Positions 9,019-32,650 of a stretch of DNA of 64,000 nucleotides are shown here, one piece after another. Made by a program: the position numbers and the translations under genes. Under the pieces are notes generated by a model. It had not been told where the DNA came from, ran no database searches, and worked only from the letters and a program-made list of their open reading frames with translations. Each line of letters opens with the position of its first letter. Within the stretch, counting starts at the first letter, position 1. Source of the DNA: a virus; the IMG/VR virus record IMGVR_UViG_3300021375_000014, positions 1-64,000 of that record, one strand, 5' to 3'.

Positions 9019-9047
9019 TTGACTTTCATAACGAATCGCTCTATATA
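9019..9047 (+). promoter_or_regulatory. early promoter with CGAATCG (GANTC) in spacer
   Basis: TTGACT(9019)-N7-CGAATCG(9032)-N3-TATATA(9042). Confidence 0.75.
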
Positions 9048-9078
9048 GAATGCATAAGTTAGGCAGAAGGGTAAGAAC

Positions 9079-9318
9079 ATGTCCACAGGTATTAATAACT
9101 TTATGAATGCAATATATGACGCGGTTGGCATCGAAGTTAGTGGTTACTATAAAGATACTCCATTCCTTGGTAAAATTATCTCCACCCGTGCGAAGTATGG
9201 CAATGATATTCAAGTTACGGTCGAAGATGATGATGGTCGCTGGTTTCTTATTGATGCGACCGAACTTCTAAATGGCGACAATGAAATTTATACTAATCTT
9301 CATGTTTATTTTAAATAA
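9079..9318 (+). CDS. small early hypothetical protein
   Basis: 79 aa directly behind its own promoter. Confidence 0.75.
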   Translation: MSTGINNFMNAIYDAVGIEVSGYYKDTPFLGKIISTRAKYGNDIQVTVEDDDGRWFLIDATELLNGDNEIYTNLHVYFK

Positions 9319-9331
9319 TTCAAGATAGTTG

Positions 9332-9360
9332 TTGACAATATAAACGAATCACTATATAAA
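9332..9360 (+). promoter_or_regulatory. early promoter with CGAATCA (GANTC) in spacer
   Basis: TTGACA(9332)-N7-CGAATCA(9345)-N3-TATAAA(9355). Confidence 0.8.
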
Positions 9361-9391
9361 GAATATGTAGACAGTAATAAAGGAATATGAT

Positions 9392-9700
9392 ATGTTTGTT
9401 GTTAAAACACAAATTCTGGAAAATTATGGTGCACATTCAGCCAATGGCAAATTTTCAAATGGCAATGCTTACTGGAAAATGAAAGGCGGCAATGAATATA
9501 TTGTGAACGATGTAGAACGTCCGCAAGATGCTATGGCATTTATTGCTGCAAAATATATGACAAATGATCTGTATTACAAAGAGTTTCCGCTAGAAGTCGT
9601 TACATGGAAGGAATGGCAAAACGAGTTAATGAATGTTGACGAAGGATATCGTGCTTTTCTAGTAGAACAAGCAATTTCAGTATCACCTCTCCAGACTTAA
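9392..9700 (+). CDS. small early hypothetical protein
   Basis: 102 aa, TQILENYGAH...YWKMKGG, AAGGA RBS. Confidence 0.8.
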   Translation: MFVVKTQILENYGAHSANGKFSNGNAYWKMKGGNEYIVNDVERPQDAMAFIAAKYMTNDLYYKEFPLEVVTWKEWQNELMNVDEGYRAFLVEQAISVSPLQT

Positions 9701-9707
9701 AAAGTTC

Positions 9708-9736
9708 TTGACAGTTCAATCCAACTACGCTATACT
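9708..9736 (+). promoter_or_regulatory. sigma70-type promoter
   Basis: TTGACA(9708)-N17-TATACT(9731). Confidence 0.8.
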
Positions 9737-9768
9737 ATAATAGTAATCAATATAGAAAGAGAATCATC

Positions 9769-10896
9769 ATGGCACAAGTTTCAACAGCAGATATGGATGT
9801 ACGGTTAGTTCGCCCAAGTGATATTCGTGAAGAAGTTAACTATGCAATGAATCGTAAGCGTCCTGTATTTATTTGGGGACCTCCAGGCATTGGCAAATCT
9901 GAAATTGTAAGTTCTATTACACAAGAACGCTCAGGCTATATGATTGATATGCGTCTTGCACTTATGGAACCTACTGACTTACGTGGTATTCCTGTTCCAA
10001 ACATGGAGTCTGGACTTATGGAATGGTTGCCGCCAGCGGATCTACCCACTCAAGAACTCGCCGATCAGTTTGAATGTGTTGTTTTATTCTTAGACGAAAT
10101 GAACCAAGCACCACAATCAGTACAGGCTGCAGCATATCAGTTAATTCTTAATCGTCGATTAGGCAATTATCATCTTCCTGATAATGTTCTTATTGTTGCT
10201 GCTGGTAACCGTGAGAGTGACCGTGGTGTTGCATATCGTATGCCTAGTGCACTTGCTAATCGTTTTGTTCACTTAGAAATGACTACAGATTTCGAAGATT
10301 GGCAGACTTGGGCATTACTTAACAATATGAACCCAGAAGTCATAGGCTATGTAACTGCTAACAAAATGGACCTAATGAATTTTGATCCTCGTACGGCATC
10401 ACGTGCATTTGCTACTCCCCGTTCATGGACGTTTGTTTCACAAATGCTTCCGCTGCCTGGCGAAGAAATCAGCACGAGTCGTTTACATGATTTGATTGCT
10501 GGCACAGTAGGTGATGGTATCGCTACCAAGTTCATGGCACATCGTGCAATTGCTGGTAAACTTCCTAATCCATCAGATATCTTAAATGGTACAGTTACCA
10601 CACTTTCATCAGAAGCACGTGAAATCTCTGCTATGTTCTCACTGACTGCATCACTATGTTATGAACTTAAAGATTTTCTAGATCGTAATGGTAAAGAAAA
10701 AATGGAAGAGTTGTATAAAATGGCTGATAATTTCTTCAACTTTATGATGGATAACTTTGAAACTGAAATGACCGTACTTGGTGGTCGCACTGCATTGAAA
10801 GTTTATAAACTACCGCTTGAGCCGCGCAAAGTTCCTTGTATCGAAAAGTTTTTCAAAAAATATGGCAAACTAATCATTGATGCACACAATGCTTAA
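9769..10896 (+). CDS. MoxR-like AAA+ ATPase
   Basis: Walker A GPPGIGKS, Walker B LFLDE, AAGN, ALANRF, TPRSW. Confidence 0.9.
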   Translation: MAQVSTADMDVRLVRPSDIREEVNYAMNRKRPVFIWGPPGIGKSEIVSSITQERSGYMIDMRLALMEPTDLRGIPVPNMESGLMEWLPPADLPTQELADQFECVVLFLDEMNQAPQSVQAAAYQLILNRRLGNYHLPDNVLIVAAGNRESDRGVAYRMPSALANRFVHLEMTTDFEDWQTWALLNNMNPEVIGYVTANKMDLMNFDPRTASRAFATPRSWTFVSQMLPLPGEEISTSRLHDLIAGTVGDGIATKFMAHRAIAGKLPNPSDILNGTVTTLSSEAREISAMFSLTASLCYELKDFLDRNGKEKMEELYKMADNFFNFMMDNFETEMTVLGGRTALKVYKLPLEPRKVPCIEKFFKKYGKLIIDAHNA

Positions 10897-10900
10897 AAAT

Positions 10901-10927
10901 AAAAAGTGATCTTCGGATCACTTTTTT
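10901..10927 (+). terminator. intrinsic terminator with cUUCGg tetraloop
   Basis: AAAAAGTGATC-TTCG-GATCACTTTTTT; TTGACA follows at 10929. Confidence 0.9.
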
Positions 10928-10989
10928 CTTGACATATTATAAATATATATGATATGTTATTAAAGTAATCAGACACAAGGACGAATCAT

Positions 10990-12330
10990 ATGCGTATCGA
11001 ACCAGAAAAAATTACCACAGAAGACGATTTCAATTCAGTGTTTGATGATTTGCTTAAAGAAAATGGCATTGAAGTTGACGAAAATTCAGAAGAACCTGTA
11101 GTATTTGAATATACAGATCACGAAGTTAAAGAAATGATTGTCTCTGGTCGTGTTCGCTTGCTGATTAAACATCCTTTTTTCGGCACACTTGCTACACGTT
11201 TGAAACTGGTAGAAGCAGAATGGTGTCCAACCGCCGCAGTAGATGGCAAACATTTTTATTATAACACCGATTTCTTTCGCACAATGACACCAGAAGAAAT
11301 TGACTTTATTGTTGGACATGAAGTATTTCACTGCGTATATGATCACTGCGGTATTGGCAGTCGCTTAATGGACTTTGCAGATAATGAACGTGACGCTAAA
11401 CTTTGGAATATCGCGGCTGATTATAAAGTTAACCAAGCAACCGTAGAAGCAAAGATTGGCACAATGCCAAAGCAAGCCTTGTATGATCGCAAGTATTACA
11501 AATCATATACCGAAGAAATTTATCGTGACCTATTTCAACAACAGAAAGATGGCAAAGATTTTAGTGATACTGATACACTTGATGAACATATGTTCGGTGA
11601 TGGTGACGGTTCTGGTGATGGCAGTGGCGAAAATGATCCCACCGGTCGCAAGGCTCCTATCAAAATCACAAAAGAAGAAGCCAAAGAAATTAAAGATCAA
11701 ATGAAACAGGCTGTATTGCAGGCTGCACAAGCATCTGGTTCTGGCAATCTTCCAGGTGATATCAAGCGCATGATTAAAGATATGACAGAGCCTAAAATGG
11801 ATTGGCGTGAATATATTAATCTAAGTATTCAAAGTTCACAAAAAGCAGATTTCACATGGATGCGCCAATCTCGTAAATCACGTAGTATGGGTATATATCT
11901 ACCAGGTATGGACAATGAAGTTATGATTGATGCTGCAATCGGCATTGATGTATCTGGTTCTATATCTAAAGAAATGATCCGCGATTTCTTAGGTGAAATC
12001 TATGGAATCATGCAACAATTTCAAGATTTTCGATTGAAAATCTGGACATTTGATACACAAGTATATGCTGAATCATTTAAAGAATTTACACCTATGAATT
12101 CAGAAGAATTAAAAGAGTATGAAATTATTGGCTGTGGCGGCACTGACTTTGCTTGCAACTGGGACTTTATGGAAGAAAATCAAATTGAACCAGATAAGTT
12201 CATCATGTTTACTGATGGTATGCCATTTGGTAGTTGGGGTAATTCCGCGTATTGTGATACATTATTTGTTATTCATGGTTCACAGCATATTGTGCCACCA
12301 TTTGGCGAATACACATATTACGAATCATAG
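10990..12330 (+). CDS. DUF2201-type metallopeptidase + VWA domain protein (MoxR partner)
   Basis: HEVFH (HExxH), WNIAADYKVN, Gly/Asp linker, MIDAS DVSGS, GGTDF, FTDG. Confidence 0.88.
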   Translation: MRIEPEKITTEDDFNSVFDDLLKENGIEVDENSEEPVVFEYTDHEVKEMIVSGRVRLLIKHPFFGTLATRLKLVEAEWCPTAAVDGKHFYYNTDFFRTMTPEEIDFIVGHEVFHCVYDHCGIGSRLMDFADNERDAKLWNIAADYKVNQATVEAKIGTMPKQALYDRKYYKSYTEEIYRDLFQQQKDGKDFSDTDTLDEHMFGDGDGSGDGSGENDPTGRKAPIKITKEEAKEIKDQMKQAVLQAAQASGSGNLPGDIKRMIKDMTEPKMDWREYINLSIQSSQKADFTWMRQSRKSRSMGIYLPGMDNEVMIDAAIGIDVSGSISKEMIRDFLGEIYGIMQQFQDFRLKIWTFDTQVYAESFKEFTPMNSEELKEYEIIGCGGTDFACNWDFMEENQIEPDKFIMFTDGMPFGSWGNSAYCDTLFVIHGSQHIVPPFGEYTYYES

Positions 12331-12354
12331 TAAAATATAAGTATAAATATAATT

Positions 12355-12894
12355 ATGAGCAATGATACACTATTATTGAATGCTAATGGTGCACCGTTAA
12401 GCGTGACTCCGTTATCAACTTTAACCTGGCAAGAGAGTATAAAACTTATCTGGTTAGATAAGATAAATGTACTTGAATGGCATGATTGGACGGTAAGGTC
12501 GGTTAACCATAGTATGCACGTACCTAGTGTTATTTGTGTTAGGGAATACATGCCACACTCTGGCACAATTAATTTCTGTCGAGCAAATGTTTTTATACGT
12601 GACCGATATACTTGTCAATATTGTCATAATACATTCAATAAAAAAGATTTAACACTTGATCATATATTGCCAAGAAGCAAGGGTGGCAGAACAAATTGGC
12701 ATAATATCGTGAGCGCATGTAAAAAATGTAATCATAGTAAAGGAAATAATTCAAATATTGTACCCAAAGTTATGCCAGATAAACCCAATTTCTATCAAAT
12801 GTATGGAAGTAAAAATTTTACATTAAACATAAAGCACGAAATTTGGCTAAAATATCTAAACTGGCCAGATGAATATGTAAATATGGTTGCATAA
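12355..12894 (+). CDS. HNH endonuclease (McrA-like)
   Basis: RDRYTCQYC, DHILPRSKGG, NIVSACKKCN; TATAAATA at 12342. Confidence 0.9.
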   Translation: MSNDTLLLNANGAPLSVTPLSTLTWQESIKLIWLDKINVLEWHDWTVRSVNHSMHVPSVICVREYMPHSGTINFCRANVFIRDRYTCQYCHNTFNKKDLTLDHILPRSKGGRTNWHNIVSACKKCNHSKGNNSNIVPKVMPDKPNFYQMYGSKNFTLNIKHEIWLKYLNWPDEYVNMVA

Positions 12895-12900
12895 AATCAC

Positions 12901-12929
12901 TTGACAACAATCACTTAATATAGTATAAT
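12901..12929 (+). promoter_or_regulatory. perfect sigma70 consensus promoter
   Basis: TTGACA(12901)-N17-TATAAT(12924); followed by a hairpin at 12931-12960. Confidence 0.88.
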
Positions 12930-12994
12930 TGTAGTATGAATAAGAGTTTATTCATATTATATATAATAAATTGACAAAATAGGAGAAACTTAAT

Positions 12995-13252
12995 ATGTCA
13001 GAAGAAACTCAAGCACCTGAAGTTGCTGCAGAAGCACCAGCAGAAGTACCAGCGGTTACAGTTAACGATCTTGTTAATGTATATGCTATTATTGATCTAG
13101 CATCAAAGCGCGGAGCATTTCAAGCAGGTGAACTATCTGCAGTAGGAAATACTGCAAATCGTGTTAAAGCATTTGTGGATCACGTACAGGCACAAAGTGC
13201 AGCGGCAGCAGAAGTAACTGGTGAAACTGAAACACCTGAAGAAGCAGGTTAA
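12995..13252 (+). CDS. small acidic hypothetical phage protein
   Basis: 85 aa, AGGAG RBS, IIDLASKRGAF motif. Confidence 0.85.
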   Translation: MSEETQAPEVAAEAPAEVPAVTVNDLVNVYAIIDLASKRGAFQAGELSAVGNTANRVKAFVDHVQAQSAAAAEVTGETETPEEAG

Positions 13253-13257
13253 CAATT

Positions 13258-13896
13258 ATGGCAACTGCACCATTTATAAAACACGTTGGCAGACATAAGG
13301 GAACAGGACAAAGACTAAGTGTTGTTTTCATGTCTCTTCCTGATGAACCAGAAAATGCTCTAGCAGTGTACAGTGATTCATTGCCGGATCGCTATCACGA
13401 TTCGTATATGGAAGCAATTGAGTCTAATGAAGGCCAAACAACTAATAATCTATATGAAGTTCTTTCACGCAAAGTATTTTGGCATGGCAAAGTTATGTTA
13501 GATACACTCCACGCTGAAGGACATCTTTCAAAGATCCCAACAGATCAGATTATTATGACTCCAAATACACAAACAAATGTACCATTGAATGAAATCAATG
13601 CCGCAATGAATTCTACAGAACAAGAAACAGTCAAATCTGTAGAACCACAAGAATCACGTATTGATTCAAATGTTAAATCGTCAAAGGCAGATGAAAATAA
13701 ACAAATTGCGCAGAATCTTTTGGTACAAGCAAACTTGTTGGCTGCAGACGCAGAAGCAAAAAGACAGGAAGCATATAATTATGATCCTAGTCTGAAACCT
13801 AAAGCAAAAACGTCTAATGCAACAGTAACTGCAAACAAATCTTCAGTTACAGATGTTCCCAAAAAGCGTGGGCGACCAAGAAAGTCAACAGCATAA
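13258..13896 (+). CDS. hypothetical protein with C-terminal AT-hook-like motif
   Basis: 212 aa; ends PKKRGRPRKSTA. Confidence 0.8.
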   Translation: MATAPFIKHVGRHKGTGQRLSVVFMSLPDEPENALAVYSDSLPDRYHDSYMEAIESNEGQTTNNLYEVLSRKVFWHGKVMLDTLHAEGHLSKIPTDQIIMTPNTQTNVPLNEINAAMNSTEQETVKSVEPQESRIDSNVKSSKADENKQIAQNLLVQANLLAADAEAKRQEAYNYDPSLKPKAKTSNATVTANKSSVTDVPKKRGRPRKSTA

Positions 13897-14168
13897 TGTC
13901 TAGTAAGCGTAGTAGTATTTTAAGTAGAATTGAACAAGAACGTATTCGCCAATCAGATTTGGCAGGAAGTGAATATGATGCAAAAAACTCTCCAAATGAC
14001 TGGATTGCTATAACATCTTATTATCTTGCACAAGAAACCAAACGTGCTACTATGCTTACCCCACCAAACGCTGACGATTTCGAAAGAGAATTAATAAAAG
14101 CAGCGGCAGTTATATTAGCGTCACTTGAGCATATTAATGTTATGAAAGAACATGGCCATCTAAGTTAG
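13896..14168 (+). CDS. MazG-like all-alpha NTP pyrophosphatase-like protein
   Basis: EQERIRQ...NDW...ERELIKAAAV pattern; adjacent to thyA. Confidence 0.45.
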   Translation: MSSKRSSILSRIEQERIRQSDLAGSEYDAKNSPNDWIAITSYYLAQETKRATMLTPPNADDFERELIKAAAVILASLEHINVMKEHGHLS

Positions 14169-14176
14169 GGAAATAA

Positions 14177-14491
14177 ATGGAATTTGATAGAGAAGGCGAA
14201 TTTGATAGAATAATGGAAGAAGTAGTTCCTATTAGCATTCCATCTTCATTCATTAAAGGAATTCAAGTAACAATGAAAAATGGCCACATTGTAACACTGA
14301 GTGGTGATGAACTATTAGCCCCGTTGCCGCTGAGTGGTGAATTTAGTTGGGCAGATATGGCAAAGAACTTTGATGCAATTATTGATGTTGAAATATTGCT
14401 TGATATTCCAAACTTACGCGAAAGTGTAGTAACGAGTGTAAAAGAAATTTTAAAAGAACATTTTGAAAGTTATAAGGACAAAGACAAATAA
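14177..14491 (+). CDS. hypothetical protein
   Basis: 104-aa acidic ORF in an operon. Confidence 0.75.
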   Translation: MEFDREGEFDRIMEEVVPISIPSSFIKGIQVTMKNGHIVTLSGDELLAPLPLSGEFSWADMAKNFDAIIDVEILLDIPNLRESVVTSVKEILKEHFESYKDKDK

Positions 14492-15361
14492 ATGCCAAAC
14501 TATGAAGAAGATGAATACTTAGATTTACTACATCATACACTAGAGAAAGGCGAAACACGTGGTAACGAGCGCACAGGCGTTGGCACTCGATCTATCTTTA
14601 TGACTACAAATAGATACAATCTTAGTAATGGATTTCCTCTATTAACAACTAAACGTGTGCCATTTAAATCAGTTCTAAGTGAATTACTTTGGTTCTTAGA
14701 AGGATCAATGAATGAACGAAGACTTGCTGAAATTCATTATGGCAAACCTAGGGAAGAACTTATTGGCAAAACAACAATATGGACTGCCAACGCAGACTCA
14801 CAAGGCAAAGCATTAGGACACTATAATAGTGACACTAATAAAGACTTGGGTCCAGTCTACGGAGTACAGTGGCGAAACTTTAATGGAATAGATCAAATAA
14901 ATCAGTTAGTACAAGGATTAAAAAATAATCCACAATCACGCAGACATATTTTAAATTCATGGAATGTTAGTGACTTAGATAAAATGGCATTACCTCCATG
15001 CCATGTAATGTCACAGTTCTATGTAAATAATGAAGGAAGATTAAGTTGTAGTTTATACCAACGCAGTGCCGATTTATTTTTAGGTGTACCGTTTAATATT
15101 GCTAGTTATTCGTTACTAACGCATATGATTGCACATGTATGTAAACTTGGTGTAAATGAATTTATTCACGTAATAGGTGATGGTCATATATATAATAATC
15201 ACATAGATGCGGTCAGGACGCAACTGGAGAGGGATCCAGTGTCGTTTCCCACACTTGTAATAAAACGTAGCGTAGATTCTATATTTGATTTTAAAATGGA
15301 AGATTTTGAAATAGTAGGATATGACCCAGGTGATACTATTCGAGCGCCAATGGCAGTATAA
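14492..15361 (+). CDS. thyA: thymidylate synthase
   Basis: RTGVGT, FPLLTTK, ELLWFL, GPVYGVQWR, MALPPCH, YQRSADLFLGVPFNIASY. Confidence 0.97.
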   Translation: MPNYEEDEYLDLLHHTLEKGETRGNERTGVGTRSIFMTTNRYNLSNGFPLLTTKRVPFKSVLSELLWFLEGSMNERRLAEIHYGKPREELIGKTTIWTANADSQGKALGHYNSDTNKDLGPVYGVQWRNFNGIDQINQLVQGLKNNPQSRRHILNSWNVSDLDKMALPPCHVMSQFYVNNEGRLSCSLYQRSADLFLGVPFNIASYSLLTHMIAHVCKLGVNEFIHVIGDGHIYNNHIDAVRTQLERDPVSFPTLVIKRSVDSIFDFKMEDFEIVGYDPGDTIRAPMAV

Positions 15362-15364
15362 AAG

Positions 15365-15390
15365 AAAAGCACCTAATAGGTGCTTTTTTT
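15365..15390. terminator. bidirectional intrinsic terminator
   Basis: AAAAGCACCT-aat-AGGTGCTTTTTTT between convergent thyA and the radical SAM cluster. Confidence 0.85.
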
Positions 15391-16501
15391 ATGTCTTACG
15401 TTTTGGTATTTTACTATCTGCACTACTGACACAACTCTTGCTTATGCACGGCATTGGTTTGTCAAATAGTTTAAATCCACTTTCGATGTATCCCAATGGC
15501 TGATCTGAACAACTATAACTGCGTTTTATACTACCATCTGGTTCACGAATTATGATGCCTTGATAACCGCTATTACAACTCCAGCCTTCAAAGTTATTAA
15601 AATTAAATGCATTGAAACGCTCAGCCTGATCCATATACCATTTCTTGCCTTTCGAATCGGTAAATTCAACTTGCATATGCCACGGCACGCTTTTATCATT
15701 TTGACCAATAGCATATGCTGGAACTTGGAAATTGGGTTTGGGTCTATCATTCCATTTACGTTTTACCTCAGTATAAGCAAGTTGCGGCATACCATTCCAC
15801 AATCTTTTCATCTGTTCTTCCGTATATCCATCAACTACACGGCTTGCAGTAGGATCAGATTGCGGCTTCAATGTTACATTGATACCTTGTTCGTGAAAAA
15901 ATAATGCATTGTCCCAATCACGTTCAAACCAGTCTGGCACCATAACCATATTCACTGTAATTTGCACATCATTTTCTTGACATAATATAAGTTTATCTGC
16001 AAACTCTTGCATCTTATCTCTTGTGTTAAGATGTTCAGTATGTAAACTAGCAGTGATACTTGCACGATGAAATGGTTTAACTCTATCTACATAATCCTCA
16101 TGCCATTTAACATTACGTGACATATTAGTTGTCATATGAACACTGGTGTAGTTGGTATTTGATACATCGTCTGCAAGATGTTCCAGAATATCTAAATATC
16201 CTGGATGAAAGGTTGGTTCACCACCAGACAATGAAAAATGAAAACTATTAAATCCGTTTTCACGTGCTTGTCTCTTTATTTCATCTATGGTTCGTAGACA
16301 TAGTTCAGTAGGACGGTGGTCTTTACGGTCACTGCGGGCATAAGGCCAACAGTAGGAGCATTTGTAGTTGCAGAATCTTCCAAGTAACCAACTAACAGTA
16401 AATAGGTCACGGTACAATAAAGTACGCTGACCAACACTAACAATATCGTCAAATGGTATTTTTGTAAAGTCATAGTTAGACCATTTTAAATCTTCGCTCA
16501 T
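15389..16501 (-). CDS. radical SAM protein with C-terminal twitch/SPASM-like domain (subtype B)
   Basis: CNYKCSYC, SGGEPT, WSCNSG...DG..RSYSC...CISKSC. Confidence 0.92.
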   Translation of the reverse strand: MSEDLKWSNYDFTKIPFDDIVSVGQRTLLYRDLFTVSWLLGRFCNYKCSYCWPYARSDRKDHRPTELCLRTIDEIKRQARENGFNSFHFSLSGGEPTFHPGYLDILEHLADDVSNTNYTSVHMTTNMSRNVKWHEDYVDRVKPFHRASITASLHTEHLNTRDKMQEFADKLILCQENDVQITVNMVMVPDWFERDWDNALFFHEQGINVTLKPQSDPTASRVVDGYTEEQMKRLWNGMPQLAYTEVKRKWNDRPKPNFQVPAYAIGQNDKSVPWHMQVEFTDSKGKKWYMDQAERFNAFNFNNFEGWSCNSGYQGIIIREPDGSIKRSYSCSDQPLGYIESGFKLFDKPMPCISKSCVSSADSKIPKRKT

Positions 16502-16504
16502 AAT

Positions 16505-17461: not shown

Positions 17462-17465
17462 ATTA

Positions 17466-21309: not shown

Positions 21310-21335
21310 TTGGTGTTTACTCCGTTATTATACGT

Positions 21336-21364
21336 ATTATACTAACATTTTAAATGATTGTCAA
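21336..21364 (-). promoter_or_regulatory. perfect sigma70 consensus promoter internal to the cluster
   Basis: Minus strand TTGACA(21364-21359)-N17-TATAAT(21341-21336); GGAG RBS before 21309. Confidence 0.88.
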
Positions 21365-21369
21365 TATAA

Positions 21370-24206: not shown

Positions 24207-25288
24207 CTGAATTGTTCCTTAAACGGATCAAATTCGGATCCACACTTCATTGCGCATACTCCCAACTTACCGTCACTTAAACTAGATTTACTCCAACTGT
24301 CTGTAATGCTATTTAATAATGTACCATCCATAACATTTTTTATATCATTGGTAATAACATTAATTCCATCTTTACCACCAGATGAATCAATGTGATCCCA
24401 AATCTGCTCTACACGATAATCTTTATGCCACCATTTATACATACGTCCAGCAGTCCAACAACATGGCATTAATAATCCCTCAGCAGTAACAAAAATCTCA
24501 TTCTTTTCTACTGCCTTACATTTAATAGAACACTTATCATAATAGTCTCTCATTGACCCATAAGATTTTTCTATTTCTTTTTGTTTTAATAATGCAATAT
24601 TCTGATTATCAATACTTTTTGGTTTCGCAATCATTGTTGTTTTTTCACCCTTGCGATTTTGAGCCTGATGTGTCTCTTTAGATGTTTCACCACTTGCAAC
24701 TATAAATCTTCCAGATTTTTTCTTTTGAAACTTTTCACATCCCCATTCAATAGCAAGTGCTTCTGCTTCTGCAACCTGATGTTCATTGTGTTGGAATATC
24801 AAAAAATCCCATCTCGCTCTACCACCGGCAGAAATAAATGTACGCATATTACGTTCTACATTATCCCAAACAACATTTTGTCTATAAAGATGATTAGTAT
24901 CACGGAGACCATCAACACTAAATATTACTGCACCTTTATTATTAATAACACCGGCCAATTCTTCCCACCATTCTGAATTCTTTGCACCGGCATTTGTATT
25001 CATACTTAGCCACATTGTAGAATTATGTTCTCTAAAGTATTTAAATACTTCTAATGTATCTCTAGCAACAATGGGATCACCAAGATTGCCACACATATAC
25101 ATAGCGTCTAATTGTCCTATAAACTCCGGAGAGAATATCTTTTTACAATCGTCTATTGATAGTTCTGCATTAGTAATATGTCTATTGTCAACCCCACCGT
25201 TTTCATTTCGATCACACATAGGACACGCTGCTTGGCAACGTTGAGTTATTTCTAGATGAACTTGTTTTATGTTACTATATCTATACAA
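24203..25288 (-). CDS. radical SAM protein (subtype C)
   Basis: LEITQRCQAACPMC, CGNLGDP, MPCCW, CAMKC; likely TTG start at 25288 overlapping the upstream stop. Confidence 0.9.
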   Translation of the reverse strand: MYRYSNIKQVHLEITQRCQAACPMCDRNENGGVDNRHITNAELSIDDCKKIFSPEFIGQLDAMYMCGNLGDPIVARDTLEVFKYFREHNSTMWLSMNTNAGAKNSEWWEELAGVINNKGAVIFSVDGLRDTNHLYRQNVVWDNVERNMRTFISAGGRARWDFLIFQHNEHQVAEAEALAIEWGCEKFQKKKSGRFIVASGETSKETHQAQNRKGEKTTMIAKPKSIDNQNIALLKQKEIEKSYGSMRDYYDKCSIKCKAVEKNEIFVTAEGLLMPCCWTAGRMYKWWHKDYRVEQIWDHIDSSGGKDGINVITNDIKNVMDGTLLNSITDSWSKSSLSDGKLGVCAMKCGSEFDPFKEQFR

Positions 25289-25946
25289 GTCTACCAAATC
25301 CCCATTGTCTTTCTTTACAAAACCAACATTTGCCACAGTGATGTGTAAAATCAGTGGTGTGAATTTCACAACTTCTAGTCAATGGGAATATTTCCTCTAA
25401 TATTCCCAATGTAACATAATGTTCACACACACCTTTTTTATCAGTATTGATCAACGGGCGTGTACTAAATCCATTAGTATAAGATTTTTTTTCTTTGCCA
25501 CGTTGACGTTCATTATACCATGCTGAATTAAATTCGCTAGGATCTACTAGTTCAGGTGCTTGCTCTGCGCTAGGGTTAGCAGTTATTCCAGCATAGTGGG
25601 ACTGTAAACCATATGATTTGTAAGCATTGATTACCAAAATGTCTTGGTCTTTAACATAGTTTGTATCACTCCTTACTGGCCCAGCGATATGAGTACTAAA
25701 GGTATAGTTGACAAGCGATTCAATTTTTGATATAACCTGTTTAGAAAATATTTCCTGAAATGGTTTTTTTTCACTCACTCCAGTTATAGGATAAATTTTT
25801 AAATCTGGACGTTCCGCTTCTGCATATTTGGCCAACATATAGGCTACTAATGCACTATCTGCCCCGCCTGATATTTTTAATCCTATTTTAGTAATGTTAG
25901 AATCTATACTCATTGTATAGTCATCTTGTGTGTTTTTAAATAGCAT
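25281..25946 (-). CDS. QueC-like PP-loop ATP pyrophosphatase
   Basis: SGGADS; TRSCE...HCGKCWFCKER. Confidence 0.82.
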   Translation of the reverse strand: MLFKNTQDDYTMSIDSNITKIGLKISGGADSALVAYMLAKYAEAERPDLKIYPITGVSEKKPFQEIFSKQVISKIESLVNYTFSTHIAGPVRSDTNYVKDQDILVINAYKSYGLQSHYAGITANPSAEQAPELVDPSEFNSAWYNERQRGKEKKSYTNGFSTRPLINTDKKGVCEHYVTLGILEEIFPLTRSCEIHTTDFTHHCGKCWFCKERQWGFGRLV

Positions 25947-25984
25947 CTATTTTCCCATTATAAATTCAACTTTTAAAGTAATAT

Positions 25985-26902
25985 TTACTTATATCCTATT
26001 ATCATAAATCGCTTATACTTATCAAGTTTTAATTCACCACTATATAATATATTTTGCATAGGCGCCATTACTACAAACTCTGCAATGTTATTTATACAAT
26101 TGACATGTTCCTCTACTTCAAAAAAGTTATTGCTTTGTAGTATAACTAGTTTACCATCTGGTATTAGATCATACCACGCTGCAAAGTTCGCAATATGTTC
26201 GCAACTAGTATTAATTATAGTGTCAGGAGAATCTACAATAGGATAACTCATACGATTGTTCGTTTTACTCCAACATTGCCAAGTATGTTGAGTATAATCA
26301 ATATCTAGTATGTCTGCTGTTATGCTTTTAAACTTCCATTGATTCGAAAACCAAGGATTATTAAAAACTTCTGCAATGTCTACACAAGTTTCGTCAATGT
26401 CAAAACTGCGGATTTTGTCTACTTTAATGTCGCTTTCAAACAGCATGGTTGCAAGAGTAGCGTACCATCCTGCACATAAGAAAACAGTACCTAAATCTAC
26501 ATTACACTTTTTAAGTTCATGTACTAACCAAAGTTTACTTCGCAACTGTCCTCGACTGAAACAGTCATTCCATATTTCGGTATTGTTAACAAAAAAACTT
26601 TTGAACGCTGCTGTAAATTGTGTATCAACATAACGATCTAATACTGGCCACAACTTCCAAGTGTTGTCTTCTAGTATAAGTTTACGCAAGTCCTCGTCGT
26701 CCGTAAGTCTAAAAATACTGTGCAGATTTTGTTCAAGCACTGCTCTGCGCAAGTCTTCTAGTTCTCCGTTTATTGCGGCTGGCAGCAATCTAAAAATACT
26801 TGAAATATCTTGATCAATATATGCTCTGCGTAAATCAGCAAGGTTACTATTAGTAGGATATAGTAGTTCAAATCTATCTAATAATTCAAATGTTTTGAGC
26901 AT
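25985..26902 (-). CDS. class I SAM-dependent methyltransferase-like protein with N-terminal repeats
   Basis: VFLCAGWYA, SFDID, INTSCEH, ILQSNN; three DLR...IFRL-type repeats. Confidence 0.65.
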   Translation of the reverse strand: MLKTFELLDRFELLYPTNSNLADLRRAYIDQDISSIFRLLPAAINGELEDLRRAVLEQNLHSIFRLTDDEDLRKLILEDNTWKLWPVLDRYVDTQFTAAFKSFFVNNTEIWNDCFSRGQLRSKLWLVHELKKCNVDLGTVFLCAGWYATLATMLFESDIKVDKIRSFDIDETCVDIAEVFNNPWFSNQWKFKSITADILDIDYTQHTWQCWSKTNNRMSYPIVDSPDTIINTSCEHIANFAAWYDLIPDGKLVILQSNNFFEVEEHVNCINNIAEFVVMAPMQNILYSGELKLDKYKRFMIIGYK

Positions 26903-27844
26903 TTACTTAATACCGATTTTCATATAATAATTTATCCCATTTATTTTTTGTACACCGGAATATAGTTCTGTTGTTAACTGAAACTTGCGATTAAATGCTA
27001 TTGAGCTAGTGAATGGTCTACATGAATCATCACTGCTACTGCCAACTAATACAACATATCGTGTCGTTGGAACCATTCTCCACCAATCTTCATAGTGTTC
27101 AATATTGCTAATATTAGTATTAATTATAACATTAGGAATTTCATCAAATGGATTACTCAAACTGCCATCCGGTAAAGTAGTAATAAATGTGTTACTAATG
27201 TAATTTATATTAAATATATCTTGTGTGGCAGATTTAAAGTTCCAATCTTCTAGCAATTTATCTTTCATCATCGAATCTGCCATGAATTGGCCGGATGGGT
27301 TTAAATCAAAACTACGAATATTTTGAAATATTAACGAACTATCCAAAAAGCTTGTACCTAATAATCCAATGCCACCATCTAAGATATAAATTGTCCCTAG
27401 ATACTTTGCTGCAAATATATTTGTCATCTGGGATATTATCCAACTGTTTATAGTACCATTAACGTCAGTAAGATAGGATGACATGTCAAAATTAGGAAAA
27501 TCATAAATCAAATCTTTAATTCTGCGTATCATCATGCCACTCTGAGAAACATTTATACTATGATAAGCAAGATAATCCATTGCACACCTATAGTTACCAA
27601 GCTGCTGTGAAGTATTATCTTCTGTATACAAATTACTCATGTACTGATAATCATACTTCTGTATTTTTGAATTTGTAGATATTATAACATCAGGATCAGA
27701 TACAATTTCATTTGTTTCTTCAATTATAAGTGTTGGATTTGTGTTGTTATTCAATTCATCATACACAACTGAGTTTGTTTTGAGTGTATTTGTTTTTCTT
27801 CTTGCTGCTCTTTTGTTTCTGACACTACTCATAATATCTATCAA
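26903..27844 (-). CDS. methyltransferase-like paralog (divergent)
   Basis: IYILDGGIG, RSFDLN, WNFKSATQDI, IINTN, YMKIGIK align with 25985..26902. Confidence 0.55.
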   Translation of the reverse strand: MIDIMSSVRNKRAARRKTNTLKTNSVVYDELNNNTNPTLIIEETNEIVSDPDVIISTNSKIQKYDYQYMSNLYTEDNTSQQLGNYRCAMDYLAYHSINVSQSGMMIRRIKDLIYDFPNFDMSSYLTDVNGTINSWIISQMTNIFAAKYLGTIYILDGGIGLLGTSFLDSSLIFQNIRSFDLNPSGQFMADSMMKDKLLEDWNFKSATQDIFNINYISNTFITTLPDGSLSNPFDEIPNVIINTNISNIEHYEDWWRMVPTTRYVVLVGSSSDDSCRPFTSSIAFNRKFQLTTELYSGVQKINGINYYMKIGIK

Positions 27845-28916
27845 ACCTTTCTTTTAGCCAATTATAATCATTTATTTTATTTAATTCTATGATGTTTTCT
27901 TTATTTTCTTCACCATATTTTCGGCCTGCAATCGCACCAGCAATGGCGTATTCGCCAAATTTTTTGTTTTTTCCTATCGCTGTCCAAGTAAACAATCGTT
28001 CATTTGTTTCTGTATCTACTTGTCCCTTAATGGTCTTACTCGACAACTTAGTACATTCCCTGAACGCACTTTTCCAAGCATTAAATGGATCGGTGTTAAA
28101 CTTAGTCACATTAGATATATCCGGCATTAACTTAAAATGTTCTGATATACTAGTAGTAAAATCTATATTCCAATCAGTTGCATTTCTCAGTAATGCTGTT
28201 GGAAATAATTTAACACCGCCATATCCATACACCAAGTCATTGATAGGATTAATTGAATGCCATGCATGCACGACTGTACGATCCCATATGGGTGCATAAT
28301 AATCAAAATTAAAATCTGGAGAAATAATAGCATCTGCATCTATTACGTAAAACATATCAGTTTCGGCAATCATTGCTGCTTTTTTGTGTGCATTAAAAAT
28401 TCCAGTAACACCGTGGACACGCTTTGCATATGGAAAACGTTCTAATATTGTTTGATAATTTTCATCAGCAAACTCTTCATCATAACTTAAATAAATTATA
28501 TCGTACAGTTTAATATTAGAATTAACACCACAGAGATCGTGTTTAATATATTCACCAGATAATAGATATAAATCATTTTCAATATTGTCTACATCATGAT
28601 TTTTATGTAACAATCTAATGCCTATATCGTGGCCGTGTTCATTTCTTATACCTGTATCGCCGCTCCAAATATGTGATAAATTATTATCCCATTCAGAAGG
28701 TCGGAAGTTCCAATCAAAGTCCGTTAAATTTATTTGATTATCGATTATCCAATAGTACTGAGTATTAACGTGCTTTTTTATTTCTTTGTGTAAATCATGT
28801 ACATTATTATTTGTTTTAACAATCTGTACATTTGGAATCTTTTCCTTGACTTTTTTATATTGTTCAATCACTTGAACGTGTAAGTCATCTATTATATAAA
28901 AACAATCGTATGCCAT
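27825..28916 (-). CDS. glycosyltransferase-like protein (GT-A fold)
   Basis: YLSYDE, GIFNAHKKAA, VIDAD (DxD), YGYGGVKLFP, AWKSAFRE. Confidence 0.7.
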   Translation of the reverse strand: MAYDCFYIIDDLHVQVIEQYKKVKEKIPNVQIVKTNNNVHDLHKEIKKHVNTQYYWIIDNQINLTDFDWNFRPSEWDNNLSHIWSGDTGIRNEHGHDIGIRLLHKNHDVDNIENDLYLLSGEYIKHDLCGVNSNIKLYDIIYLSYDEEFADENYQTILERFPYAKRVHGVTGIFNAHKKAAMIAETDMFYVIDADAIISPDFNFDYYAPIWDRTVVHAWHSINPINDLVYGYGGVKLFPTALLRNATDWNIDFTTSISEHFKLMPDISNVTKFNTDPFNAWKSAFRECTKLSSKTIKGQVDTETNERLFTWTAIGKNKKFGEYAIAGAIAGRKYGEENKENIIELNKINDYNWLKERFDRYYE

Positions 28917-28949
28917 TGATATCCCATTAATTATTATTATTATATCATA

Positions 28950-30485
28950 TTAATCATCGTGTGTAAAGACTTTTATTCCATAATGATTAGAAAATTCTCG
29001 GGCATCATTTATATCATTGACTATAGGTTGTCCTTTTATATTCAATGATGTATTAACTAACATTGGACATCCAGTGTTCTTTTTAAATTCAGTTAATAAT
29101 TCATACAATCCAGCATGTTGGCTCTTGTTTACTGTTTGTACCCTTGAAGTGCCATCTATATGCACAATAGCCGGAAACTTTTCTGGATATTTGCATTTAG
29201 CAACAAACTGCATATACGGAGATTCTATAATGTTTTCTGGCATGTCAAAATAATCGTGTACATCTTCTTCTAATATCATAGGAGCAAATGGACGAAATTT
29301 CTGTCTATGCTTAATATTATTCATTCTATCTTTAATAGTATCTCCACGTGGATCTGCTGTAAGTGTGCGATTACCTAATGCTCTTGGACCAAACTCCGCG
29401 CGTCCGTTAGCGATGCCAATTATTTCACCATCTAGCAATGCTTTTAGGGCACGTTTAACAGGATAAGAACCCGCAATATTATGTCCCAGATACGGAGTAT
29501 GTAATTTAGTTCTCTTATTAAAAAATAAAGATCCACTTGCTCCAATACAACTGCCAGCATCACCAGGATTAGGCATAATCCATATATTTTTAAATCTATC
29601 AGTGATAGAACTATTAGCACTACAGTTAAGTGCACATCCTCCCATCAGTACCAAGTTTTCACATTTTGTGTTTTTACGGGCGTATTCTATTATTTTGACT
29701 AACATCTGCGTATATATATGTTGTGTTGCTGCCGCGATATCAAATTTGTCTTGTTCACTCGTTAACTCAGATAGAAAATCATTACATCCTCTGTGTAGAT
29801 TTTTTTTAAAATTAACAATATGATAAAATTTACTCGTATGATCATTTAATTTTATTCCAAATTTATCATACATGTGATTTACTATCGTTTTGCCTCTTAC
29901 CTGTCTGGTAATGTCTCCATATGCCGCCATACCCATAAGTATATACTCATCTTCTTGTGGTTTTAAACCCAATCTTGCTGTCATCGCACTGTAAAATAAA
30001 CCAATACTATCAGGATAAACTTGTGAATAAATTTTTTCTAGATTATTACAATTACCTTTCCATATAGTTAATGTTTCTAATTCACCTATACTATCAATTA
30101 CTACTACAACAGCATTATTAAACGGACTAGTAAAATATCCACTTGCAGCGTGGGTATAATGATGCGATTGATATATTATCGGAATGTTTCGAAGTTGTGA
30201 AAATGATTTTAAATAACGTTTCGGCAGTTCGTTCATATCAAATGCTAACGAATATTGGCCAGCAACAAATTGTCTCCACTTTTTTACATATGGACGTTCA
30301 TACCACGCTATTACATCAGGCGTACCATACGAGAGGGCTTCTTGAATTATTTCTGCATTCAAGTTAGGATCATTTTTAATTTTAGAATAGCGTTCACTAT
30401 GACTAGCGAATAAAATTTCACTGTCTTTAATGACGCTGACCGCAGCATCATGGTTTAATGCACCTGATATACCTAATACAATCAT
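28950..30485 (-). CDS. O-carbamoyltransferase (NodU/CmcH/TobZ family)
   Basis: HDAA, ERYSKIK, HHYTHAAS, MGMAAYG, GGCALN, PGDAG, EFGPRALGNR, FRPFAP, NTSLN. Confidence 0.95.
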   Translation of the reverse strand: MIVLGISGALNHDAAVSVIKDSEILFASHSERYSKIKNDPNLNAEIIQEALSYGTPDVIAWYERPYVKKWRQFVAGQYSLAFDMNELPKRYLKSFSQLRNIPIIYQSHHYTHAASGYFTSPFNNAVVVVIDSIGELETLTIWKGNCNNLEKIYSQVYPDSIGLFYSAMTARLGLKPQEDEYILMGMAAYGDITRQVRGKTIVNHMYDKFGIKLNDHTSKFYHIVNFKKNLHRGCNDFLSELTSEQDKFDIAAATQHIYTQMLVKIIEYARKNTKCENLVLMGGCALNCSANSSITDRFKNIWIMPNPGDAGSCIGASGSLFFNKRTKLHTPYLGHNIAGSYPVKRALKALLDGEIIGIANGRAEFGPRALGNRTLTADPRGDTIKDRMNNIKHRQKFRPFAPMILEEDVHDYFDMPENIIESPYMQFVAKCKYPEKFPAIVHIDGTSRVQTVNKSQHAGLYELLTEFKKNTGCPMLVNTSLNIKGQPIVNDINDAREFSNHYGIKVFTHDD

Positions 30486-30595
30486 TTATATATAAACGGA
30501 TCACGCTTACGTAGTTCTGCTAAACGTTTTTTTAATCGTTTTTTCTCTTTATACATTGTATAAGGATAAATTATTATTTGCCATATTTTTTTCAT
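30482..30595 (-). CDS. 37-aa basic micro-protein MKKIWQIIIYPYTMYKEKKRLKKRLAELRKRDPFIYK (not in ORF track)
   Basis: Translated by hand; its TGA overlaps the carbamoyltransferase ATG (ATGA). Confidence 0.75.
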   Translation of the reverse strand: MKKIWQIIIYPYTMYKEKKRLKKRLAELRKRDPFIYK

Positions 30596-30597
30596 TC

Positions 30598-30867
30598 TTA
30601 TTCTATTCCTATATTTACTAGTATTATTAATATTATTACAGTGAGAACTTTTACTATAAACATTTTGCCTATACCTTTTCCAGTATCTTCAACTACTGGC
30701 TTCCAAGTTTCTAATCTGCCTATTTTTTTCCATTCTTCTTTAGATGTCCACAATCCACCGACATGTTTGAGCCATTGCTTAAACGTTTTGTCATCGTGTC
30801 TCTTGCGTTCAGTATGCCACGCATCTAATATTTCAAAAATAGTCTTAATTCCCATAATAATTCTCAA
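30598..30867 (-). CDS. small protein with C-terminal TM helix
   Basis: 89 aa, hydrophobic C-terminus, coupled to neighbours. Confidence 0.6.
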   Translation of the reverse strand: MRIIMGIKTIFEILDAWHTERKRHDDKTFKQWLKHVGGLWTSKEEWKKIGRLETWKPVVEDTGKGIGKMFIVKVLTVIILIILVNIGIE

Positions 30868-31133
30868 TTAATGTAATGTATTTCAAACCAGGTTAGCATT
30901 TCTTTTCCTTCTTCTGGAGTAGCATTAAACCATTCACCATGTACGCGACGATGTGCATATTCCCGGTGTAGTTTTTTCTCCAATTTAACAACATCACCAT
31001 CTATATGAATTGTTTCAATAATATTGAGTTTTTTTGCATTTCCAGTTTGTAGTGTTTTGAGTCTTTTTTCTGGATTATTACTAAATCCAAATTTACACAA
31101 TTCTGCTCCATCAGATATACAATATATATACAT
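30864..31133 (-). CDS. GIY-YIG (T5orf172/MUG113-like) domain protein
   Basis: YIYCI..KFGFS.NPEKRLKTLQTGN..E..LH..GEWF. Confidence 0.85.
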   Translation of the reverse strand: MYIYCISDGAELCKFGFSNNPEKRLKTLQTGNAKKLNIIETIHIDGDVVKLEKKLHREYAHRRVHGEWFNATPEEGKEMLTWFEIHYIN

Positions 31134-31864
31134 TATCCATTTCCCGATCTTGTACGTTCAATATCATCGAATATAATTTTAGCCCAATCTTTATGTGCTA
31201 CATCATTGGGATGTAAAAATTTTTCATCTCCCTCTATGTCATAATATAGATTCAAATCATACATATAAGTAAAAAATGTCTGGTCTTCATATAGGTATTG
31301 CATATCTATTTGTTTCATAACATTTTCCATCTCATAGGTCTTGCATATTTCTGAAAATCTAGTGGGATCAATAAGATTAGGAGTTAGATTTAAAGAGTTA
31401 AATAATACATATTCTAGTTCTGCATTTTTTAAAAAGTTCTGAAGTGTAATAACATTGATAAGATACTGATGAAAATCATACACTGGTGACCAAAAATGCT
31501 TCATGTATAATTCATTTAGTTTCTTTAAATCATCATTTGTATTAGCATCAAGTCTTATATTACCATGATATTCAATCGCAGGTATATTGTGTATCAATAA
31601 ATTTTTATCTTCAATAAAATGTTCTTTTCTATTTGGAGTTGTTAATCCAATAGCAACAAACGGACGTTCACCATTGGCAAGCATATCACTTATTGTTTTA
31701 ATTGCTGTACGAACAATATAAAAATTAGAAACTCCTCGATCCGCTTCTGTTTTCGTCTCTTGTCTATCAAATCCTAATAGTTCAGCCAATTCATATGGCC
31801 AAGCAGTTTCTTTATTTGCTAGTCCAGTACCATATGTAAAACTACATCCATTCGCATATAACAT
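31133..31864 (-). CDS. SGNH/GDSL-like protein
   Basis: YANGCSFTYG, GVSN, C-terminal HPN..AH. Confidence 0.65.
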   Translation of the reverse strand: MLYANGCSFTYGTGLANKETAWPYELAELLGFDRQETKTEADRGVSNFYIVRTAIKTISDMLANGERPFVAIGLTTPNRKEHFIEDKNLLIHNIPAIEYHGNIRLDANTNDDLKKLNELYMKHFWSPVYDFHQYLINVITLQNFLKNAELEYVLFNSLNLTPNLIDPTRFSEICKTYEMENVMKQIDMQYLYEDQTFFTYMYDLNLYYDIEGDEKFLHPNDVAHKDWAKIIFDDIERTRSGNG

Positions 31865-31897
31865 TTTTTATACATCCTTCTTTATTATATTCGTAGT

Positions 31898-31905
31898 TAT
31901 TTATC
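31898..31905 (-). promoter_or_regulatory. putative late promoter GATAAATA
   Basis: tatttatc on + strand, 34 nt upstream of ATG 31864; AAGGA RBS. Confidence 0.55.
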
Positions 31906-31917
31906 TTGAGAAAAAGG

Positions 31918-31946
31918 TTGACATTATAGACGAATCACTTTATAAA
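31918..31946 (+). promoter_or_regulatory. early promoter with CGAATCA in spacer
   Basis: TTGACA(31918)-N7-CGAATCA(31931)-N3-TATAAA(31941). Confidence 0.8.
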
Positions 31947-31974
31947 GAATGTATAAGTTAGATAGGAAATCATC

Positions 31975-32172
31975 ATGCACAAGAAAAACAGTTATTTCTT
32001 CAAAACAAAAGAAGAGGCTCTTTCGTATATCAAAGGTTTCAATACAAAAGAAACTGGGCGGCCAGACCGCGACACATACATCCGTGGACCATTTGCGCAC
32101 GATAGTGGCCATGACGCTGACGATCCAAATCGTCAAGTTGGATTTGTTGTTCATGTAGAAAAATATAGTTGA
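31975..32172 (+). CDS. small early hypothetical protein
   Basis: 65 aa, AGGA RBS, directly behind a promoter. Confidence 0.75.
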   Translation: MHKKNSYFFKTKEEALSYIKGFNTKETGRPDRDTYIRGPFAHDSGHDADDPNRQVGFVVHVEKYS

Positions 32173-32183
32173 AGACGGGTTTT

Positions 32184-32345
32184 ATGATTTATACTTGGCA
32201 AATATTCTACAATGATATCTTTCTTGGATATCAATATGCAATGACTGAATACTCAGCCCGAGAAAAGGCATTTATGACGGGTGGCAGTGCTAGTAAATAT
32301 ACTGGCGCCAATTTAGATAATATAAAAGTAGTGAGAATAAATTAA
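32184..32345 (+). CDS. 53-aa hypothetical protein (not in ORF track)
   Basis: MIYTWQIFYNDIFLGYQYAMTEYSAREKAF...GSASKYTG...VVRIN; fills the gap between genes. Confidence 0.6.
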   Translation: MIYTWQIFYNDIFLGYQYAMTEYSAREKAFMTGGSASKYTGANLDNIKVVRIN

Positions 32346-32363
32346 TGTCATTGAAAAAGAATA

Positions 32364-32392
32364 TTGACAACCCCGACGAATCACTTTATACT
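32364..32392 (+). promoter_or_regulatory. early promoter with CGAATCA in spacer
   Basis: TTGACA(32364)-N7-CGAATCA(32377)-N3-TATACT(32387). Confidence 0.82.
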
Positions 32393-32423
32393 AGTTAAGT
32401 AATCAAAAGAAAGAGAAGATAAT

Positions 32424-32618
32424 ATGAATATTATAGATTTCACAAAAGTAACTGATATTGAATTTGAAGGCGTTGACATGGCAGACTATCCTAAGTTCTG
32501 CGATGCGTATATTGAATCTGCTGTTATCAATGGCGTTGAAGCCACAGAAGAAGAACTTGACGTAATCAACAATGACTATTCGTTTGTTTACGAAAAACTA
32601 CAGGAATGGTTGTATTAA
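32424..32618 (+). CDS. small acidic early protein
   Basis: 64 aa, DYPKFCDAYIESA. Confidence 0.75.
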   Translation: MNIIDFTKVTDIEFEGVDMADYPKFCDAYIESAVINGVEATEEELDVINNDYSFVYEKLQEWLY

Positions 32619-32621
32619 ATC

Positions 32622-32650
32622 TTGACAATCATTACGAATCACTATATAAA
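32622..32650 (+). promoter_or_regulatory. early promoter with CGAATCA in spacer
   Basis: TTGACA(32622)-N7-CGAATCA(32635)-N3-TATAAA(32645). Confidence 0.82.

Follow-up and report, generated by a model that had tools for sequence, protein, structure and literature searches.

GcrA, a regulator of the cell cycle, and the DNA methyltransferase CcrM make up the best-studied epigenetic transcription switch in bacteria. GcrA rides on domain 2 of sigma70 and stimulates open-complex formation (Haakonsen 2015, PMC4647560). Its best site is TGATTCG, with a broader preference for YGAKTCK, and the sites of its regulon lie 'narrowly around -20' or at +2 to +30 (PMC4647560). Upstream GcrA boxes have been placed at -20 +/- 1 and -30 +/- 2, on the side of the DNA that faces away from the polymerase, and a basic patch at the C-terminus of GcrA contacts the non-template strand at -7 to -4 and stabilizes the open complex (Wu 2023, PMC9976885). 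GcrA boxes are published only from bacterial chromosomes. Here we describe a promoter class in a 64,000-nucleotide (nt) stretch of viral DNA (hereafter the window), which is the first 64 kb of the 95,949-bp IMG/VR contig IMGVR_UViG_3300021375_000014 (phage G000). Five of its promoters carry a box, CGAATC(A/G), at a fixed place between the -35 and -10 hexamers. Judging from sequence, we consider it reasonably probable that these are promoters of sigma70 type, used by the host RNA polymerase on the DNA of a giant T4-like marine phage, and that their box would be read by the GcrA of the host.

Several phage systems resemble this arrangement in part. CtrA boxes control genes of alphaproteobacterial phages in what has been called 'lytic deferment' (PMC9437464). 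The arrangement that we propose is alike in wiring phage promoters to a host cell-cycle regulator and differs in both regulator and site (CtrA reads TTAA-N7-TTAA); a scan of alphaproteobacterial phage genomes for GcrA sites in the same study, the only such scan in print, reported no positional signal (PMC9437464). In the MotA/AsiA middle promoters of T4, as here, a second promoter class is marked by an extra box ahead of a sigma70 -10 element and interspersed with plain early promoters, but the MotA box takes the place of the -35 element, at about -30, whereas the box described here occupies -22 to -16 and leaves the -35 TTGACA intact. A third likeness is to the PeSL (promoter-early stem-loop) cassettes of T4-type phages, reportedly described by Arbiol et al. 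in 2010. These are likewise near-identical early-promoter cassettes that lie beside hypervariable small open reading frames (ORFs) and recur with unrelated flanks; they are defined by mobility and a stem-loop rather than by a factor-binding word in the spacer, and our comparison concerns their promoter part only.

The pattern TTGACWNNNNNNNCGAATCRNNNTATA (TTGACW-N7-CGAATCR-N3-TATA) matches the window exactly at 9019, 9332, 31918, 32364 and 32622, always on the + strand (Table 1). The first-pass annotation of this DNA, made from the letters alone, had claimed that these five promoters share one layout, and all five proved exact; 100 of 100 dinucleotide-preserving shuffles of the window gave no match. 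Beyond the five, no copy of the strict pattern exists anywhere in the 95,949-bp contig, and within the promoters of G000 CGAATCR never occurs in the opposite orientation. The conserved block exceeds its first description and reads TTGACA-N6-(A/G)CGAATC(A/G)CT-N-TATA, and a purine-T-A is conserved at nt 7-9 after the -10 hexamer, where we place the predicted (unmapped) start. Downstream of each of the five sites, at 20-27 nt, come a Shine-Dalgarno sequence and the initiation codon of a small ORF that has no Pfam family.

The contig is rated 26% complete by CheckV, implying a genome of about 350 kb, has a guanine-cytosine (GC) content of 34%, and encodes portal, major head and baseplate proteins of T4 type. 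Among cultured phages it is closest to five jumbo phages, PA5oct, Phosso, Atu_ph07, Vibrio 2.275.O and SCTP-2, with identities of 68-70% in the major capsid protein and 47-54% in the portal; when two segments of the window were compared with cultured phages by megablast, no match appeared. A closer relative, G001, is a 342-kb genome (92% complete, GC 39%) whose core genes are 75-86% identical to those of G000 in amino acids (aa). Three box-type promoters each were also found in two unrelated, mid-sized, non-jumbo phages, namely G024 (46.3 kb, with terminal repeats, rated 100% complete, GC 46%, siphovirus-type tail genes) and G027 (31 kb, GC 48%).

In IMG/VR, the same promoter design recurs in more than 118 viral DNA stretches, a lower bound obtained with the strict pattern. 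We then considered every TTGAC[AT]-N17-TATA site in G000, G001 and fetched loci, 1.4 Mb of related phage DNA, and scored spacer positions 7-16 by their mismatches to ACGAATCACT. The resulting distribution is bimodal: 157 sites have at most 3 mismatches and 99 have 5 or more, with only 2 in between, at 4. When the comparison was restricted to sites with a downstream Shine-Dalgarno sequence and start codon, CGAATC stood at -22 to -17 in 138 promoters, followed at -16 by A (124) or G (13), while positions -29 to -24 and -13 varied freely. The few near-variants retain CGAATC or AGAATC and are mostly AGAATCA. With these rare variants added to the invariant core CGAATC, the tolerated set is MGAATCR, which mirrors the YGAKTCK of GcrA.

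The position of GANTC in promoters, which the first-pass annotation had proposed to check, was examined in G000, G001 and related loci. Among 235 related promoters, with spacers of 16-18 bp allowed, GANTC is centered at -19 in 160 (minor registers -18 in 6, -20 in 3 and -22 in 4, all relative to predicted starts), and it always lies on the non-template strand as MGAATCR. The sigma70-type core TTGAC(A/T)-N17-TATAnn is present at 5/5 window sites and in 207/235 related promoters. In G001, the -35 hexamer lies 7 nt upstream of the C of the box at 14 sites and 6 nt upstream at 9 more. Over the genome at large, GANTC is mildly under-represented (observed/expected 0.83 in G000 and 0.63 in G001). Applied to bacterial and archaeal genomes (596 Gb), the strict pattern gave 26 single matches in scattered places, which is the chance level, and no phage contig binned with a host; a 45-nt BLAST of the promoter cassette returned only noise.

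The box goes together with a weakened -10 element. Four of the five hexamers in the window lack the T at -7, promoter 4 (TATACT) being the only one to have it, and all seven box-free promoters listed by the first-pass annotation possess it, so that both halves of its contrast were borne out. Over the larger set, a -7 T is found in 26/138 box promoters vs 39/62 box-free ones (Fisher p = 3e-9), the preferred base at this position in box promoters being A (89/138). At -15/-14 box promoters carry C-T, whereas box-free promoters are enriched for the T-G of an extended -10. Common to both classes is the purine-T-A at the predicted start, and in G000 and G001 the two are interspersed on the same strand within the same small-gene arrays. 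The missing -7 T and extended -10 TG argue that the box makes a functional contact. A gene for a MoxR-like AAA ATPase provides a natural compensatory pair: its orthologues (86% aa identity) are preceded in G000 by a box-free promoter with TATACT (window 9708-10896) and in G001 by a box promoter with TATAAC (37810-38975).

Sequence, register, orientation, promoter logic and probable host lineage all fit a promoter of the GcrA type. Read on the other strand, CGAATCA becomes exactly TGATTCG, and CGAATCG becomes CGATTCG; the phage set MGAATCR falls within the reverse complement of YGAKTCK, and the first-pass annotation was right to call the heptamer a GcrA-preferred site, TGATTCG being the top-ranked sequence (PMC4647560). 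With the start predicted 7 nt after the hexamer, the box center at -19 lies inside the published window of -20 +/- 1. The scaffold of the activation complex solved by cryo-electron microscopy, derived from PcsM, reads TTGACA-CCCGGG-CG(m6A)ATC-CCTGC-TATAAT on the non-template strand (PMC9976885). The phage promoters share its orientation, its 5' C and its 17-bp spacer; their box is 1 bp nearer to the -10, except that the 9 G001 sites with a 6-nt gap match exactly. Like the GcrA promoters of Caulobacter crescentus (PMC4647560, PMC5887438, PMC9976885), they combine a sigma70 core with an asymmetric GANTC, with preferred flanks, near -20, and the logic that we propose for them, a cofactor aiding the open complex, is the same. 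They differ in lying in phage genomes rather than in the host chromosome, in being centered mostly at -19 rather than -20, and in adding a conserved A at -23, A-C-T at -16 to -14 and an A at -7; the probable host is a member of the Rhodobacteraceae rather than Caulobacter, and methylation and GcrA dependence are putative here.

Modules shared with cultured roseophages indicate that the host of G000 very probably belongs to the Roseobacter group (Rhodobacteraceae), a host link that is new here. The distal 230 aa of a 1077-aa tail fiber find their best match, 57% identical, in roseophage CRP-227 (host FZCC0040), whereas no other cultured phage exceeds 37% over this tip. The adjacent chaperone module (91807-93579 of the contig, beyond the window) is 82% identical to CRP-227 in nucleotides over about 690 nt, which points to a recent exchange between a jumbo phage of 34% GC and a 39-kb podovirus; this module also matches Lentibacter, Celeribacter and CRP phages, all of the Rhodobacteraceae. 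A second connection runs through Roseobacter phage CRP-6, whose host is the RCA-lineage Rhodobacteraceae strain FZCC0042 and which is the nearest cultured relative of G024 (portal 65% vs 36% for the next phage; the DNA polymerase also has its top match there). CRP-6 (MK613348.1) bears TTGACG-N7-CGAATCA-CTC-TATACA at 918, and its non-coding end region (42400-44927) holds 10 CGAATC(A/G) heptamers on both strands. One of these lies in TTGCAA-N7-CGAATCG-N3-TTAATG, in the register of the box promoters. The presence of the box in CRP-6 and in the unrelated G024 and G027 argues for a reader on the host side.

CRP-6 and the jumbo phages are connected by genes as well. The CRP-6 gp61 tail fiber is 50% identical to a G001 protein over 434 aa, gp59 and gp60 match ORFs adjoining the tail fibers of G000, and CRP-6 and G001 each have a cell-wall hydrolase gene behind a box promoter. 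Small DUF1127 proteins, of a family typical of alphaproteobacteria, are encoded next to MazG in CRP-6 (gp26, 11802-11999), G027 (9777-9959) and G001 (192118-192336). Promoters are not mentioned in the CRP phage paper. With tail-fiber modules leading to RCA-roseobacter phages and a box in CRP-6, a host outside the alphaproteobacteria, which the first-pass annotation had named first among the findings that would speak against GcrA, is now unlikely. Both ccrM and gcrA have been reported from 'most other Rhodobacterales', the ccrM of Dinoroseobacter sharing 68% identity with its Caulobacter counterpart (PMC4046655); Pelagibacter, the other low-GC marine candidate, has been placed in a group without ccrM and gcrA (PMC2877005). 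Less specific were an ESM Atlas search with an SbmA-like gene, which resolved to 'Pseudomonadota' only (GcrA is present in 105/401 sampled Pseudomonadota genomes), and the occurrence of the phage in metagenomes of marine, estuarine and marsh origin (13 studies), none of them with a host-labeled run. None of the five cultured jumbo relatives has a box promoter, and they therefore give no host clue.

If GcrA reads the box, it is unlikely to be a phage product. No match to GcrA (PF07750) was found in 57 box-carrying phage records (G000, G001-G005, 50 further contigs and CRP-6) by a search that recovered Caulobacter GcrA as a control, so that the earlier suggestion of a phage-encoded GcrA is not supported. 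No adenine methylase of the beta class (PF01555) or Dam-like type (PF02086) was found in G000, G001, G002, G024 and G027, and none of the beta class in CRP-6. The methyltransferase of the partial relatives G003-G005 was considered as a CcrM orthologue and rejected as a generic beta-class enzyme (96 bits in G004/G005, with the CcrM cut-off at 830). As the examined phages thus encode neither a GcrA nor a CcrM orthologue, both would have to be host-derived if GcrA and methylation are involved. The first-pass interpretation is accordingly supported for motif, register, orientation and a probable alphaproteobacterial host, and not supported for a regulator brought by the phage.

In the mechanism that we favor, host GcrA would ride on sigma70 domain 2 at box promoters, its DNA-binding domain entering the major groove at about -19, on the spacer face opposite the polymerase, to read CGAATC(A/G) (in reverse complement TGATTCG or CGATTCG). 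The box adenine is probably N6-methylated by host CcrM. Contact with GcrA would aid open-complex formation where the -10 is deliberately weak, lacking both the -7 T and the extended -10 TG, while the box-free promoters of the same arrays, with a full -10, would fire without the cofactor. A weak -10 fits a cofactor that sits on sigma domain 2 and acts at the open-complex step, and by analogy with the published complex the missing -7 T may be rationalized by the basic patch of GcrA at -7 to -4. We infer GcrA as the reader, methylation of its sites, the positions of the starts and early timing, the last from gene context alone.

Several observations weigh against this proposal. That the host carries GcrA and CcrM is drawn from order-level literature on the Rhodobacterales, and the phage has 34% GC against 50-53% in RCA hosts. 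Of seven phages of these RCA hosts, only CRP-6 has the box and six are without it, and it is missing from the jumbo relatives that infect Sinorhizobium and Agrobacterium. With no GANTC-type methylase in the near-complete phages, and with CcrM restricted to part of the cell cycle in Caulobacter, methylation of virion DNA is hard to explain. The A-C-T at -16 to -14 and the preference for A at -7 exceed what is published for GcrA. When 80 bacterial genomes with GcrA were searched for this geometry, there were 331 matches vs 113 for a reversed control, a count that conserved coding sequences confound, and the matches listed showed no clean peak at a gap of 7-8. Finally, four metatranscriptome assemblies, in which cover was low, even and on both strands with no usable ends, were silent on expression.

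The sparse occurrence among RCA phages would be natural if the box were instead read by a spacer-binding activator encoded by the phages themselves, by a MotA-like logic, marking a delayed-early or middle class that spreads horizontally together with the activator gene. We regard this as unlikely, though it has several points in its favor: CRP-6-like and jumbo phages do exchange genes, the interspersion of box and box-free promoters resembles two temporal classes, and a weak -10 suits any activator. Against it, the -35 is intact, unlike in MotA promoters, and MotA (PF09114) and AsiA (PF09010) were not found in G000, G001 and G002, in a search for which the control genomes were silent for both families. 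In a comparison of four box-carrying genomes, the genes present in every one were limited to an XkdF-type protease module and a cytidylyltransferase-like gene; PhoH, MazG, glutaredoxin and DUF1127 are common to some, and the shared genes include no DNA-binding candidate. A seven-position match to the GcrA site, in the right register and orientation, would moreover be a coincidence.

Somewhat less probable, in our view, is that the box has no separate reader, being either an intrinsic element contacted directly by the polymerase or a passenger in a mobile promoter cassette. The 45-bp cassette at 31918-31962 is shared with an RNA-library contig of another phage, with unrelated flanks on both sides; the small ORFs behind box promoters are hypervariable, and several copies come after terminator-like T runs. 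The cassettes are indeed modular, as both this shared segment and the lack of G001 homologues for the small ORFs indicate. Yet across phage families whose GC ranges over 34-48%, CGAATC is invariant while its surroundings at -29 to -24 and -13 drift freely, which argues for selection on the word rather than recent copying. The compensatory loss of the -7 T and TG argues for a functional contact, and an intrinsic element does not sit well with a pattern found only at chance level in bacterial genomes. As an observation in its own right, the recurrence of this cassette in another phage's metatranscriptome contig is a PeSL-like modularity.

An operator for a phage or host repressor that closes these promoters later in infection is improbable. 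Operators in spacers are common, and the box is short and asymmetric, as for a monomeric binder, but this would leave the systematic absence of the -7 T and TG unexplained, repressed promoters being usually strong, and no candidate repressor is common to the phage families. We give next to no credence to a T7-like single-subunit RNA polymerase promoter: the block ACGAATCACTATA agrees with the T7 consensus ACGACTCACTATA in 12/13 letters when aligned by eye, but an invariant TTGACA exactly 17 bp from TATA excludes it (T7-type promoters are a conserved block of roughly 23 bp, -17 to +6, and need no -35), setting TATA at -4 to -1 leaves the register 2 nt off, the counterpart of T7 -3 is free to vary, the contig has no PF00940 match (in a search without a positive control), and the siphovirus-like CRP-6 carries the same box. 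A lambda Q/QBE-type arrangement, a spacer box with a downstream -10-like element, had been brought up by the conserved TGTATAAG after the hexamer; it was dropped because that block is the predicted start region (purine-T-A), present in box-free promoters also, and because each genome has many such promoters before small ORFs.

An extension of the GcrA proposal, which we put forward only tentatively and think doubtful, is that the methylation state of phage DNA acts as a clock, serving as an early-to-late switch and a host cell-cycle gate common to unrelated roseophages. Injected DNA, fully methylated by CcrM, would fire the box promoters through host GcrA; replication would then yield hemimethylated or unmethylated copies that lose GcrA activation, giving a switch without a phage regulator, and the oscillation of GcrA and CcrM would gate infection to one stage of the host cell cycle.

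If host GcrA does read the box, these would be the first phages to wire early transcription to the GcrA/CcrM switch, through a promoter class built on GcrA's optimal site. The class spans more than 100 contigs of cosmopolitan marine jumbo phages as well as unrelated roseophages, and would bear on the timing of infection in one of the ocean's dominant bacterial groups. The box is present in a phage in culture, CRP-6 on RCA strain FZCC0042, so the question is directly testable. The promoter series itself, with box and weak -10 on one side and box-free promoters with full -10 on the other, including the orthologous swap, is a natural set for studying GcrA compensation of a defective -10.

The genes behind the box promoters of the window are listed in Table 1. 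The five small ORFs directly after these promoters have no G001 homologue, and in the array behind promoters 3-5 only the last two ORFs (65 and 247 aa) have one.

Table 1. Promoters of the two classes and adjoining reading frames in the window (starts are predictions).
Feature	Position	Strand	Description
Box promoter 1	9019..9054	+	-35 TTGACT 9019-9024; box CGAATCG 9032-9038; -10 TATATA 9042-9047; predicted start A 9054
ORF behind box promoter 1	9079-9318	+	79 aa
Box promoter 2	9332..9367	+	-35 TTGACA 9332-9337; box CGAATCA 9345-9351; -10 TATAAA 9355-9360; predicted start G 9367
ORF behind box promoter 2	9392-9700	+	102 aa
Small-ORF pair behind box promoters 1 and 2	9079..9700	+	no Pfam family, no G001 homologue
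Box-free comparator promoter	9708..9743	+	TTGACA-17-TATACT (-7 T), before MoxR-like AAA ATPase gene 9769-10896
Box-free comparator promoter	12901..12936	+	consensus TTGACA-17-TATAAT, before ORF 12995-13252
Box promoter 3	31918..31953	+	-35 TTGACA 31918-31923; box CGAATCA 31931-31937; -10 TATAAA 31941-31946; predicted start 31953
ORFs behind box promoter 3	31975-32172, then 32169-32345	+	first ORF 65 aa
Box promoter 4	32364..32399	+	-35 TTGACA 32364-32369; box CGAATCA 32377-32383; -10 TATACT 32387-32392; predicted start 32399
ORF behind box promoter 4	32424-32618	+	64 aa
Box promoter 5	32622..32657	+	-35 TTGACA 32622-32627; box CGAATCA 32635-32641; -10 TATAAA 32645-32650; predicted start 32657
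ORFs behind box promoter 5	32684-32836, 32836-33033, 33030-33773	+	
Small-ORF array behind box promoters 3-5	31975..33773	+	65, 58, 64, 50, 65, 247 aa; no Pfam families

Box-free promoters of G000, G001 and related loci have an excess of GANTC at +2 to +30 (19 vs 5.2 expected). This may reflect the downstream window of GcrA or mere leader and ribosome-binding-site context, and we do not use it as support. AGAATCA peaks at +19 to +22 of these promoters, just before start codons, as at about 9755 of the window ('agagaatcatcATG').

Both jumbo phages avoid short palindromes. In G001, avoidance is complete for many 6-bp palindromes (AAGCTT, AGATCT, AGCGCT, GACGTC and GTCGAC each occur 0 times against 16-58 expected), and G000 avoids AGCT (0.27), AGATCT (0.23) and GGCC (0.48), a composition that suggests heavy restriction pressure from the host. 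Between the early-type arrays of the window lie an HNH endonuclease ORF (PF14279/PF01844; 12355-12894) and a T5orf172/MUG113 ORF of GIY-YIG-like type (30864-31133), both of which are likely homing endonucleases.

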